Shown: positions 45,768-48,384, counted from the first letter of the stretch. The stretch is 64,000 bases of DNA from Thermoanaerobaculia bacterium (GCA_034665065.1 JAXDGL010000014.1:4916-68915); one strand, 5' to 3'. The notes: generated by a model not told the origin, from the sequence alone. Numbers and translations: made by a program.

Positions 45768-46565
45768 TTACTCCGCTGGCTGTCTGAACTTCCGCTGATC
45801 GGGTGGAGCGTAATACTCATCGAGAGACGCCGGTACTTGACTCAGGAAACCAAGTTTTTGAAGAACGCGATCCGGCAAGCCCGTCAGATCGCGGCCGGCC
45901 AGCATTCGCGGGATATCAAGGCGCTGCTTCATAAAGGGACGGCACATATTAAGCGTTAAGGCGTGGCGCCACGCTGATGTCCTGTTTGTTCCGCCGCGAT
46001 GCCACGTGCGAGCGTTAAAATACCACACCGACCCGGCAGGAACGACCAGACGCTCAGCACCGGCAAGAAACTCTTCTTCGGAAGGCGCATCGACCCGCAT
46101 ATGAGACCGTGGCAAATAATACGTCGCGCCATTTTCTACGGTGAAATCGTCCAATGCGATCGTTACTCCGAGATTCGTTATGAACCCTGGAATCACGCGT
46201 GGACAATCCACATGAATGCGCGCCGAATAATTTGATTCGTGCGGCGGCATCGAGGAGGATGTGTACGCATAAATAATACAGCCTGGCCCTAGAATGTCGT
46301 CAATCACGTCCATCAACGGTGGATGATTAAGCAAGTCCAGAAAAACCCTACCGTGCATAAAGCAGGCAAGAACCATCCCATAATCGCCGTAGTCCGTCCC
46401 ACCGTGGTATCCGGCCTCGGCCACGATCGCAACTTGAAGTGCCTTCTTCAGTTCCTCTATTTGAGAACGGTCCAAGACACTTCGCTCCACAATGGACCCC
46501 TCCGCCTCAATGCGTGCTCGCCGCCCCGCACGACGTAGCTGGTCCCTTAAGCCGGGCGATGTCAT
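45768..46565 (-). CDS. PhyH-family Fe(II)/2-oxoglutarate-dependent dioxygenase
   Basis: HVDCP (HxD) and a distal WHRGGTNRT His, in a jelly-roll context. Confidence 0.75.
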   Translation of the reverse strand: MTSPGLRDQLRRAGRRARIEAEGSIVERSVLDRSQIEELKKALQVAIVAEAGYHGGTDYGDYGMVLACFMHGRVFLDLLNHPPLMDVIDDILGPGCIIYAYTSSSMPPHESNYSARIHVDCPRVIPGFITNLGVTIALDDFTVENGATYYLPRSHMRVDAPSEEEFLAGAERLVVPAGSVWYFNARTWHRGGTNRTSAWRHALTLNMCRPFMKQRLDIPRMLAGRDLTGLPDRVLQKLGFLSQVPASLDEYYAPPDQRKFRQPAE

Positions 46566-47509
46566 AGACGGTATTTGCTCCGAATCACATAGAGTGGGCG
46601 ACCCTGCACTTCCTTGAGGACTCGACCAATATAAATGCTTCCAAGTCCAGTCACGAGAATCTGTAAACCACCAAAGAACACGATCATCGATACGGTCGAT
46701 GCGTATCCGGGTTGATAATTAACAAGCCATAGTTTTTGAACAATTATCACACCCAGAGACAGAAATCCACATAAGGCGACAGCAAAACCAAACATTGCCA
46801 TGAGTCGCAAAGGAAGATCAGAAAAAGAGATGACAGATTCGATAGCCATCCTCAGTCGCGAGCGGAAGGAGTAACTGGAACGACCAACCTTCCGTTTTTG
46901 GTGGCGCACAGACACATATCCATGTTTGAACCCTAGCCAGCTCTCAAGCCCTGGGAGATACCGGGCGCGCTCCTCAAGAGAATTGTATGCTTCCACGAAC
47001 GTACGATTCATGACTCGCAACGTAGACACGTTTGTGGGAACACGTGCCCCAGTCAACCAGTTCAGAGTGTGCGCAAATGCCAAGGAAGTGATACGTCGGC
47101 TGAACGGCACATTCCGCGCACCATACAAACCGTAAACAATGTCGTGGTCGCCGTTTTCCAGAACCGCAAGAAGGTTCGGGATCTCGCCGGGGGGATCTTC
47201 CATGTCGACATTCAACATCCCCACGAAATTGCCGGATGCATGGTGATAGCCACAGGAGACGGCGATATGCTGGCCGAAATTCCGGCTGAGCGAGATACTC
47301 TTCGCGAACAAGAAGGTCTCACATACCTTGCGAAGCTGAATGTCGGAGTCGTCGCCGCTGCCATCGTTGACGAAGATCAGTTCCACTTGGGATGTGAGGT
47401 CGATGATCGAGAGGTACTGCTGGAAAACTTGCTCGAACTCTGCAGCGAACGCACGTGCCAGGCGGCCATCGTTGTAGATTGGGACGACGAATGAGTAACG
47501 GATGGTCAT
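46562..47509 (-). CDS. GT2 polyprenyl-phosphate sugar transferase (ArnC/GtrB/DPM1-like) with C-terminal TM helices
   Basis: YSFVVPIYND...IFVNDGSGDDS, a DxD motif and two C-terminal TM helices. GC is markedly lower, about 45%. Confidence 0.8.
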   Translation of the reverse strand: MTIRYSFVVPIYNDGRLARAFAAEFEQVFQQYLSIIDLTSQVELIFVNDGSGDDSDIQLRKVCETFLFAKSISLSRNFGQHIAVSCGYHHASGNFVGMLNVDMEDPPGEIPNLLAVLENGDHDIVYGLYGARNVPFSRRITSLAFAHTLNWLTGARVPTNVSTLRVMNRTFVEAYNSLEERARYLPGLESWLGFKHGYVSVRHQKRKVGRSSYSFRSRLRMAIESVISFSDLPLRLMAMFGFAVALCGFLSLGVIIVQKLWLVNYQPGYASTVSMIVFFGGLQILVTGLGSIYIGRVLKEVQGRPLYVIRSKYRL

Positions 47510-47674
47510 AAACAGGTGTGAGATGATAGACGAAATCACGTGCAGGAGGGCTGAGGTAGGAGGCGCCGGCGTAACTCACCCAACCTCCCACCCATCAGGA
47601 GCGCAGGCTTCGCACTCCGCGCCACCTTTCCTGGAGATCGTGCACACGCCCGCTGCGGCGCCGGAGAGTAGGGC

Positions 47675-48040
47675 ATGAACGGGCGAGTCCGACCTTCCTC
47701 ATTTCTTTTCCTTACTTTGGCAGTCGGATTTCAATCTGCAGCCGTGGTCTCGGGCAAGGCCGCCGCCATGCAAATGGGCACGCCAACATTGGGAGCGTTC
47801 CTGAGCAACAGATGGTACGTCGCAAGTCTCACTTGCCTCGTACTCCAGGCGCTTTTCTGGCAACTCGTGCTCCGCGAGGTTCGGCTCTTCGTCGCCTACC
47901 TGTTCTCGGGCTTCAGCTATTTCTTGGTACTGATCGCAAGTCACGTCATCTTCATGGAACATGTGACCGGTGCGAACTGGGCCGGGGTGCTTGCAATCAT
48001 CGTGGGGATTTCCCTCGTGATCAGGGAGGATGTCGCGTGA
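47675..48040 (+). CDS. Small 4-TM membrane protein (SMR/EamA-like; ArnE/ArnF-type flippase subunit candidate)
   Basis: 121 aa with four hydrophobic segments. Divergent from the ArnC-like gene. Confidence 0.5.
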   Translation: MNGRVRPSSFLFLTLAVGFQSAAVVSGKAAAMQMGTPTLGAFLSNRWYVASLTCLVLQALFWQLVLREVRLFVAYLFSGFSYFLVLIASHVIFMEHVTGANWAGVLAIIVGISLVIREDVA

Positions 48041-48384
48041 AAAACGCCACGGCAATTTTCACCGCCGGCGTACTGCTGGCATCCGTGGGCCAGCTCTTGA
48101 TGAAGAAGGGTGCTCTTCGAGGACGCCGGCGTTCGCTCCTCGAGTCTTTTTGCGATCCGTTTACAATTGCAGGCTATACCCTGATGGTGTGCTCCACTGT
48201 CACTTCGACGATTGCACTGAAAACACTACCCTTGAAGGACGCAATCTCGCTGCAGCCGCTGGGTTACATCCTTGTCGTCATTCTTTCCATGGTTGTCCTC
48301 CGCGAGAAGATGGCGCGTCGTCAAGCCGTGGGACTGATCCTTGTCCTGGCTGGCATGATCATCTTCAATTTGGAGGGCTCGTGA
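48037..48384 (+). CDS. Small 4-TM membrane protein (SMR/EamA-like; second subunit of an ArnE/ArnF-type pair)
   Basis: GTG start overlapping the upstream stop in a GTGA arrangement. 115 aa with four hydrophobic segments. Confidence 0.5.
   Translation: MKNATAIFTAGVLLASVGQLLMKKGALRGRRRSLLESFCDPFTIAGYTLMVCSTVTSTIALKTLPLKDAISLQPLGYILVVILSMVVLREKMARRQAVGLILVLAGMIIFNLEGS

Follow-up and report, generated by a model that had tools for sequence, protein, structure and literature searches.

A candidate polyprenyl-phosphate sugar synthase and an ArnE/ArnF-related membrane protein pair in a Thermoanaerobaculia polysaccharide locus

We analysed a 64,000-nucleotide stretch of DNA from the metagenome-assembled genome of a Thermoanaerobaculia bacterium (GCA_034665065.1, JAXDGL010000014.1:4916-68915; hereafter the window), focusing on a gene of the glycosyltransferase family GT2 that lies head-to-head with two overlapping genes for small membrane proteins, sm1 and sm2. 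The results indicate that the GT2 belongs to the polyprenyl-phosphate sugar synthases of the GtrB/ArnC type, and that sm1 and sm2 are related to the small multidrug resistance (SMR)-type proteins ArnE and ArnF, lacking the glutamate of the drug exporters. We consider it likely that these genes serve a three-component mechanism of the Arn/Gtr type, in which a sugar would be placed on a lipid carrier, flipped across the membrane and attached to its acceptor outside. The module would extend over ~37.9-49.3 kb (37953-49250) and include an orphan membrane protein of the GT-C fold, with the GT2 and the small pair forming its synthase/flippase half.

Arrangement of the GT2 and the small pair

The open reading frames (ORFs) of the GT2, sm1 and sm2 were found in the window sequence where a first-pass annotation, made from the sequence by itself, had placed them:

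46562-47539, minus strand: GT2, assigned to the GtrB/ArnC family of polyprenyl-phosphate glycosyltransferases; 325 aa from a GTG start, with a GT-A domain and two C-terminal transmembrane (TM) helices
47540-47674: intergenic region of 135 bp between the GT2 and the divergent small-permease operon
47675-48040, plus strand: sm1, ArnE/F-like SMR/DMT subunit with four TM segments, 121 aa
48037-48384, plus strand: sm2, ArnE/F-like SMR/DMT subunit with four TM segments, 115 aa, GTG start

The GTG start of sm2 overlaps the TGA stop of sm1 in the tetranucleotide GTGA (48037-48040), and a hydropathy scan gave four hydrophobic segments in each small protein; both lengths lie in the ~110-130 aa range of the ArnE/ArnF subtype. 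The ORFs and the hydropathy thus agree with the annotated architecture, a GT2 with a C-terminal TM anchor placed head-to-head with two GTGA-coupled four-TM proteins. The adjacent pair is conserved in ~30 Thermoanaerobaculia contigs, at 50-66% identity, which shows that sm1 and sm2 are genuine genes rather than ORFs arising by chance.

The GT2 aligns over its full length with GtrB and ArnC

In a PDB sequence search, residues 11-321 of the 325 residues of the GT2 matched the solved Synechocystis GtrB (5ekp, E 1.5e-47), and a full-length match was obtained to the ArnC structures 9hwj, 9bhc and 8vxh (E ~1e-33), including both C-terminal TM helices, which the hydropathy scan placed at ~241-274 and ~278-305. 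Because of this full-length alignment with both proteins, the GT2 is read as a GtrB/ArnC/DPM1-type synthase of polyprenyl-phosphate sugars, and by homology we assign it to that glycosyltransferase family. As the homology to GtrB begins at Met11, translation probably starts at the ATG at 47509. GtrB, at 166 bits, is closer to the protein than ArnC is, at ~120 bits, and the protein scored 173 bits against the NCBIfam model PgfS (8e-51; cut-off 500). Close relatives were few among 1.8 billion cluster representatives, the best being 52% identical; next came the GtrB/ArnC family, which is very large, at 30-37%.

sm1 and sm2 resemble lipid-type SMR proteins

Among NCBIfam models, the best match of sm1 was ArnE (9.9e-8), followed by ArnF (1.7e-6), with no drug-SMR model, and that of sm2 was ArnF (8.6e-9), ahead of EbrB (6.4e-6) and Qac (~5e-4). 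Against Pfam EamA, sm2 scored above the gathering score (2.5e-8) and sm1 gave 0.0055. When searched against PDB sequences, neither sm1 nor sm2 matched an ArnE/F structure, and the only matches were marginal ones to TM3-4 of EmrE (sm2 profile E 0.014).

Absence or replacement of the central TM1 glutamate is a criterion for the lipid-flipping SMR subtype (PMC9574504). We aligned the sm1 and sm2 families with ArnE, ArnF and EmrE of E. coli (NC_000913.3). The first-pass annotation had named EmrE-clade placement with a conserved Glu14 as the point at which its view of the pair could fail; the Glu14 column held Gln20 in sm1, conserved in its family, and Ala15 in sm2, invariant in its family, with Ser in ArnE and Ala in ArnF. 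TM1 of sm2 carries ASxGQL and so has the S-x-G/A-Q-L motif of ArnE/ArnF, and no conserved acidic residue was seen in TM1 among 34 sm2 homologues of 50-100% identity; the 100% match is to an NCBI protein from a metagenome-assembled genome. A drug-efflux role for sm1 and sm2 was considered and rejected, given the missing Glu14 and the glycan context.

The orientation of the two proteins was predicted by the positive-inside rule from Lys+Arg counts in the loops. Nine sm1 homologues showed a bias of +1 to +3 (weak N-in), with E. coli ArnF at +2, and seven sm2 homologues showed -3 to -7 (strong N-out), with E. coli ArnE at -6. This opposite bias is the signature predicted for an antiparallel heterodimer, as in E. 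coli ArnE/ArnF. Judged by family models, TM1 residues and charge bias, sm1 and sm2 are assigned to the lipid-type SMR group and not to the drug-efflux SMRs.

The pair is accompanied by ArnC-like GT2 genes in related loci

The comparison with other genomes involves the following neighbours:

48381-49250, plus strand: class I S-adenosylmethionine methyltransferase with an N-terminal CxxC...CxxC Zn-ribbon (Methyltransf_23/11/12/25)
45768-46565, minus strand: PhyH-family Fe(II)/2-oxoglutarate dioxygenase (PF05721, 4.2e-17), overlapping the GT2 stop; presumed sugar tailoring
44604-45764, minus strand: Zn-ribbon plus class I methyltransferase, 386 aa (Methyltransf_23/11/25/12), last gene of the GT2-PhyH-methyltransferase operon
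42901-43584, plus strand: WbqC-family protein (PF08889, 2.1e-74), of a family linked to O-antigen loci
42212-42904, plus strand: GNAT N-acetyltransferase (Acetyltransf_3, 7.8e-20), candidate N-acylase of a 4-amino sugar with a WecD/PseH-like role
41000-42169, minus strand: DegT-family transaminase, assigned by NCBIfam as WecE-type dTDP-4-amino-4,6-dideoxyhexose transaminase
38884-40869, minus strand: memG, polytopic membrane protein of an orphan family with a predicted GT-C fold, 661 aa, unlisted in the first-pass annotation
37953-38612, minus strand: hexapeptide-repeat acetyltransferase downstream of memG, WcaF-like (Hexapep 5.8e-16; WcaF 7.6e-24, below cut-off)

The minus-strand operon is tightly packed and led by the GT2, followed by the PhyH gene and the 386-aa methyltransferase gene, and on the other strand a second GTGA (48381-48384) couples sm2 to the methyltransferase gene at 48381-49250.

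We collected 57 loci with sm2 relatives, cited here by L numbers, and mapped the window proteins and the E. coli Arn proteins onto them. In the close relatives (54-66% identity), all from Thermoanaerobaculia, sm1 and sm2 were adjacent in every case, and in all 14 close loci with long flanks a GT2 of the ArnC/GtrB type, with two TMs at its C-terminus, lay no more than 10 kb away. Of the 13 distant loci (26-42% identity) whose flanks each extended 1 kb or more, 12 had a match to an ArnC-like GT2 at a distance of up to 162 bp. The first-pass annotation had asked for synteny with GT2 genes in relatives as a test of the small pair, and these counts bear it out.

The window arrangement, memG-DegT-WbqC-methyltransferase-PhyH-GT2 head-to-head with sm1-sm2, recurs in L017, with an 81% identical GT2. 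In L021, L022, L025 and L031, memG-DegT-WbqC-methyltransferase-PhyH is followed by sm1-sm2 and then by a convergent ArnC-like GT2 23-26 bp away. Synthase GT2, small pair and memG occur together in L007, L017, L021, L022, L025 and L031. Orthologues of the PhyH protein (71-74%) adjoin the small pair in L017, L021-L023, L025 and L031, where orthologues of the 44604-45764 methyltransferase (69-71%) are syntenic with PhyH, and WbqC stands beside DegT/memG/ArnC-like GT2 genes in L003, L006, L007, L012, L017, L021, L025, L027, L030 and L031.

Among the distant loci, the GT2 has the C-terminal TM pair in L036, L039, L040 and L049 and is shorter, lacking that pair, in the PMT-linked loci. The neighbouring large membrane protein in L039, L043, L049, L052 and L060 is a Pfam-confirmed PMT/PMT_2 GT-C (PMT 98-101 bits with PMT_4TMC; PMT_2 at or above the gathering score). 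By gene content, these distant GT-C, GT2 and SMR loci can be described as compact three-component cassettes.

A counterpart of the 48381-49250 methyltransferase (66-74%) directly follows sm2 in L003, L006, L018, L019, L026, L029, L032 and L033, and MT3-like genes (27-39%) lie directly upstream of the ArnC-like GT2 in L036 (42-587), L039 (8212-8970), L049 (4434-5156) and L050 (1213-1917). This distribution suggests that the Zn-ribbon methyltransferase may be a conserved fourth component of the GT2-SMR cassettes.

L017, the locus most similar to the window, contains two sm2-like copies (8902-9228 and 10001-10330), both 61% identical to sm2 and ~800 bp apart.

memG is predicted to have a GT-C fold

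No Pfam, NCBIfam or PDB sequence match was obtained for memG, PDB profile search included. Its ~100 homologues are all annotated as hypothetical, all come from Thermoanaerobaculia/Acidobacteria and carry no Pfam domain. An AF2 model was obtained with pLDDT 86.4 and pTM 0.89, and its 12 best Foldseek matches in the PDB were all GT-C proteins (probability 0.87-1.00), namely STT3/OST, ALG12, PglB, ArnT, ALG9 and EmbB; against ArnT 5ezm the target-normalised TM-score was 0.50. From this model, memG is assigned to the GT-C fold. The gene lies directly downstream of the WecE-type aminotransferase gene in every relative (aminotransferase orthologues 77-87%) and within 7 kb of the GT2, and GT2, sm1/sm2 and memG together fall within 9.5 kb. 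We hold the chances to be about even that memG is the GT-C partner of the module, and about even too that the sugar is of the 4-amino-4,6-dideoxyhexose class.

The sugar is probably an acylated amino-dideoxyhexose

The transaminase at 41000-42169 scored above the cut-offs of two WecE equivalogs (NF008687, 556.9 bits, cut-off 375; TIGR02379, 521 bits, cut-off 434.85) and reached only 203 bits against ArnB. The aminoarabinose pathway, which the first-pass annotation had taken as its model, is thus not indicated as regards the sugar itself. GDP-perosamine, considered as a donor on account of the Gmd gene in the locus, was likewise rejected, the transaminase being a WecE equivalog. The adjacent GNAT matched PseH at 4.7e-16, below cut-off.

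In L001, L003, L004 and L011 the PhyH and methyltransferase genes are replaced by genes for a formyltransferase or for AMP-ligase, acyl carrier protein, KAS III, SDR and Rieske oxygenase. Because relatives exchange these sets, the sugar is read as a variably N-acylated amino sugar, and the N-acyl group seems to be hypervariable in this lineage. From the gene content, the sugar linked to undecaprenyl phosphate (Und-P) is probably a derivative of N-acyl-4-amino-4,6-dideoxyhexose and not aminoarabinose.

Proposed mechanism

The first-pass annotation had proposed a periplasmic route with an Und-P-sugar synthase and an SMR-type flippase, and both the absence of Glu14 and the GT2 synteny support it. 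From these observations, the family and fold assignments and the opposite charge bias, we infer a donor sugar, a flipping activity, a GT-C partner and an acceptor that would act together as follows. The WecE-type transaminase (41000-42169) would produce a dTDP-4-amino-4,6-dideoxyhexose, which could be N-acylated by the GNAT (42212-42904) and/or the hexapeptide transferase, with possible tailoring by PhyH and the methyltransferases. The GT2 (46562-47539) would then transfer the sugar to Und-P at the cytoplasmic face of the membrane. sm1 and sm2, which lack the proton-coupling glutamate, would form an antiparallel heterodimer of the SMR type and equilibrate the Und-P-sugar to the periplasmic leaflet. 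Finally, memG (38884-40869), as an analogue of ArnT or Gtr*, would transfer the sugar to an acceptor, most simply the polymer exported by Wzm/Wzt and alternatively lipid A-core.

Several observations weigh against this mechanism or against a close equation with Arn. All three proteins remained far below the Arn equivalog cut-offs: the GT2 scored 134 bits against NCBIfam ArnC NF007986 (5.5e-39; cut-off 529), sm1 32.2 bits against ArnE (cut-off 92) and sm2 35.9 bits against ArnF (cut-off 99). By these scores the GT2 is not an ArnC orthologue, so that the label ArnC-like, given in the first-pass annotation, holds for the family, with its full-length ArnC match, and not for orthology; sm1 and sm2, falling outside the equivalogs, are likewise classed as relatives and work-alikes of ArnE/ArnF and not as orthologues. 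The metal-binding DXD region of the GT2 reads N-V-D-M-E-D-P-P instead of the usual DADLQ[DN]PP, and Asn occupies its first position in 19 of the 140 GT2 relatives aligned, mostly in the closest subfamily. The second Asp is invariant (140/140) and the 81% identical L017 orthologue shares the N-V-D motif; from this alignment, N-x-D is regarded as a conserved trait of a GT2 subfamily and not as decay.

The neighbourhood also contains points of this kind. In most close relatives the ArnC-like GT2 lies 2-9 kb from the pair and is 27-34% identical to the window GT2; because of this distance and divergence, the partnership is seen at the level of the locus, with the GT2 exchangeable. Soluble GT2s encoded downstream (homologues of 49316-51266) accompany the pair most constantly, and L012 has memG, DegT and an ArnC-like GT2 with no small pair within 10 kb. 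No clear RmlB for supply of the dTDP-4-keto sugar was found in the window, and no ArnD-like deacylase was seen.

More tentatively, the module may constitute a Thermoanaerobaculia analogue of Arn for an N-acyl-4-amino-4,6-dideoxyhexose, with memG founding a new GT-C family and the Zn-ribbon methyltransferase acting as a fourth component, e.g. by methylating the lipid- or nucleotide-linked sugar; we regard this fuller version as possible and no better than that. What is novel here is modest: an unclassified GT-C family, an N-x-D subfamily of GT2, and a methyltransferase found together with the GT2-SMR pair.

Alternative explanations

The best-surviving alternative keeps the route as proposed and changes its end point. 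memG would modify lipid A/core in the manner of ArnT, or a protein in the manner of PMT/PglB, and the polymer would be decorated by one or more of the other polytopic proteins (23664-30216 and 1-1614). The structures that memG matches best, oligosaccharyltransferases and ArnT, point this way, as does the set of WecE-type transaminase, N-acyl/formyl transferase, ArnC-like GT2, SMR pair and GT-C, which mirrors arnBCADTEF; several more candidate GT-Cs are also present in the window. Against this, the module is embedded in polysaccharide genes and co-varies with them, and we judge a different acceptor to be a serious but minority prospect.

A second alternative is that the pair acts as a Wzx surrogate, flipping an undecaprenyl-pyrophosphate (Und-PP)-linked unit for its own operon (from the GT2s at 49316-51266 to the Wzy_C-like protein at 54208-55593) instead of the product of the divergent GT2. 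In its favour, the neighbours kept most constantly by close relatives are the soluble GT2s downstream and the Wzy_C/HpsL-like protein, and the window showed no Wzx gene. At the position that the pair has in L001 (7642-8348), L011 carries instead a Polysacc_synt gene of the Wzx family (361-1569), divergent from GNAT and followed by GT2. This replacement does not discriminate between the two readings, because Wzx/MATE proteins also flip Und-P-monosaccharides in three-component systems (PMC11127046); it is possibly a non-orthologous displacement by another class of lipid-sugar flippase, found at one locus only. The distant relatives, in contrast, are compact GT-C, GT2 and SMR cassettes without a polymerase, Und-P-monosaccharides alone are the substrates for which an eight-helix SMR dimer has been established or suggested (PMC9574504, PMC11127046), and Wzm/Wzt are already there for polymer export. 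A surrogate role therefore appears improbable.

Still less probable is the idea that sm1 and sm2 are accessory or activator subunits of the GT2, as GacJ is with GacI, and that flipping is performed by the GT2 or another protein. The head-to-head or adjacent placement with the GT2 would fit such a role, and a DPMS enzyme has been proposed to be able to flip its own glycolipid product (PMC12992685); yet both proteins belong to the EamA/SMR transporter fold family and show the charge signature of an antiparallel heterodimer, as is typical for SMR transporters.

The weakest alternative, an ordinary SMR exporter of drugs (Qac), guanidinium (Gdx) or polyamines (MdtIJ) placed in a glycan locus by chance, is hardly credible: it can draw on the weak EbrB, Qac and EmrE TM3-4 matches of sm2 given above and on the label "EmrE-like cation transporter" attached to some homologues by JGI, but the essential TM1 glutamate is missing from both subunits and both families, ArnE and ArnF are the top-scoring models, Rfam revealed neither a guanidine riboswitch nor any other, and synteny with Und-P-type GT2 and GT-C genes persists down to 26% identity.

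Comparison with known systems

The proposed Und-P-sugar route shares with Arn of E. coli/Salmonella a DegT-family 4-aminotransferase, an N-acyl transferase (N-formyl in some relatives), an Und-P GT2 whose C-terminus forms a TM hairpin, two overlapping four-TM SMR-type genes of opposite charge bias without the central Glu, and a GT-C transferase in the same gene neighbourhood. It differs in that its transaminase is a WecE equivalog and not ArnB, that its GT2, sm1 and sm2 fall far short of the Arn cut-offs with the GT2 nearer to GtrB, that the window lacks an ArnA decarboxylase and an ArnD deformylase, and that memG has no sequence similarity to ArnT; it adds PhyH and methyltransferases, and the module lies inside a Wzm/Wzt polysaccharide locus.

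With the Gtr systems of O-antigen modification (GtrA/GtrB/Gtr*) it shares the closest solved homologue of the GT2, GtrB 5ekp, and the logic of a synthase, a small flippase and a GT-C. The flippase would be an ArnE/F-like SMR heterodimer instead of GtrA, the donor is probably an amino-dideoxyhexose instead of Glc/Gal, and the module is not phage-borne.

Three-component periplasmic decoration of ABC-exported O antigens has been documented in Klebsiella and Citrobacter (PMC11127046). The pentofuranose systems (Citrobacter youngae O1/O2; mycobacterial DPA/Rv3789/Emb-Aft; PMC11127046) also combine extracytoplasmic post-polymerisation glycosylation with Wzm/Wzt; in them flippases of the MATE and SMR classes can stand in for each other, and a new GT-C family is established by the enzymes (PMC11127046). 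Their donor is made from phosphoribosyl pyrophosphate by a phosphoribosyltransferase, whereas in the window a GT2 would make it from a nucleotide sugar. The Fuc4NAc branch of enterobacterial common antigen (WecE/WecD) likewise has a GNAT adjacent to a WecE transaminase, as in the window, where the transaminase exceeds the equivalog cut-offs; there, dTDP-Fuc4NAc is used by a cytoplasmic glycosyltransferase on Und-PP, in contrast to the set of Und-P synthase, flippase and GT-C found here.

The analysis would extend Arn/Gtr-type logic to the class Thermoanaerobaculia of the poorly studied soil phylum Acidobacteriota and suggests a candidate route for surface glycan variation in these bacteria. 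It adds comparative support for SMR pairs as lipid-sugar flippases, with GT2 synteny across ~45 loci and Pfam-confirmed GT-C neighbours in five distant ones, and flags an unclassified GT-C family of ~100 members that could become a new CAZy family. The concepts themselves are unchanged, since three-component systems beside ABC-exported polymers have already been described.

The wider polysaccharide locus and other membrane proteins

Outside the module, the following features bear on the export and decoration of the polymer:

9268-10350: WecA-like polyisoprenyl-phosphate HexNAc-1-P transferase (Glycos_transf_4 1.8e-37, WecA/MraY-like matches)
14282-16323, plus strand: Wzm (ABC-2 permease; PF01061, 2.8e-20) and Wzt (ABC ATPase; PF00005, 5e-22; weak Wzt_C, 4.6e-4)
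25248-26840, minus strand: memD, polytopic, possibly GT-C (GT87 E 0.009, below cut-off)
28831-30216, minus strand: memF, polytopic, with an FEDEVW motif after TM1, putative PMT_2/Agl23-like GT-C (TIGR03663, below cut-off)

With both the Wzm/Wzt pair and the WecA-like transferase present, the locus appears by gene content to encode an ABC-transporter-dependent polysaccharide pathway. Wzm and Wzt orthologues (78% and 65%) lie 6-8 kb from memG in L012, and Gmd and many GT2 and GT4 genes are also found in the locus. Because Wzm/Wzt stand in the same locus, the ABC-exporter route is taken to coexist with the decoration route, as had been suggested from the first.

Four further GT-C-like proteins had been named in the first-pass annotation (1-1614, 23664-25217, 25248-26840 and 28831-30216). 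Their polytopic nature stood, and none was matched by a curated GT-C model. The TIGR03663/Agl23 match of memF covered residues 32-182 (1.4e-10; 40.8 bits, cut-off 126), with no Pfam match. For memD only three homologues were found and the AF2 model was poor (pLDDT 59); the 13 best Foldseek matches of this low-confidence model were all GT-C (E 3e-3 to 0.3, TM 0.2-0.34), which is no more than suggestive. The proteins at 1-1614 and 23664-25217 matched the Leptospira "putative glycosyltransferase" family LA_3751/2 at 1.3e-4 and 1.1e-3, with PMT_2 at E 8. Pfam searches up to E 10 with the large membrane proteins of the window gave nothing convincing, and an all-against-all phmmer comparison among them and E. 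coli ArnT gave no paralogy. Of all these candidates, memG is the best-supported GT-C.

The segment 23664-30216 encodes four consecutive large polytopic proteins (517, 530, 630 and 461 aa), an unusual density of putative transferases; they showed no mutual similarity and matched no curated family.

In the intergenic region 47540-47674, an Rfam search that included guanidine riboswitches gave no match, and a promoter/terminator scan gave no promoter-like site above chance. The GC content is 0.54-0.58 over 42-48 kb of the window and ~0.61 elsewhere. Within this lower-GC part, ~1 kb at 43585-44603 is gene-poor, with short broken ORFs only; it had no tblastx match to relatives and contained one weak Radical_SAM fragment (E 0.21), so that a decayed ancestral ArnC-like gene, considered as its origin, is unsupported. 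Because the GNAT-WbqC orientation in the window is inverted relative to L017, this segment is probably the debris of a local rearrangement.

Further genes complete the picture of the locus. Grouped at 31443-37036 are genes for an SDR, an FkbH-domain protein that exceeds its cut-off (TIGR01686, 294 bits), a 317-aa protein with a weak SGNH match and a DltB-like MBOAT (195 bits). The group resembles a Dlt/AlgI-style module that would acylate the polymer outside the cytoplasm, possibly with glyceryl/acyl groups. The HpsL-like protein at 54208-55593 (Wzy_C 0.004) is found at 57-73% identity ~6 kb downstream of the pair in most relatives, and a second Wzy_C/O-antigen-ligase-like protein with a clear Wzy_C domain (2e-18) lies at 61893-63302. 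A NodU-like carbamoyltransferase at 57802-59889 (Carbam_trans_N/C, 1e-57 and 1e-70) suggests that the glycan is O-carbamoylated. Finally, the 371-aa protein at 18506-19621 is a full-length match to the "reversibly glycosylated polypeptide" family (PF03214, 2.2e-11), here in a bacterial glycan locus.

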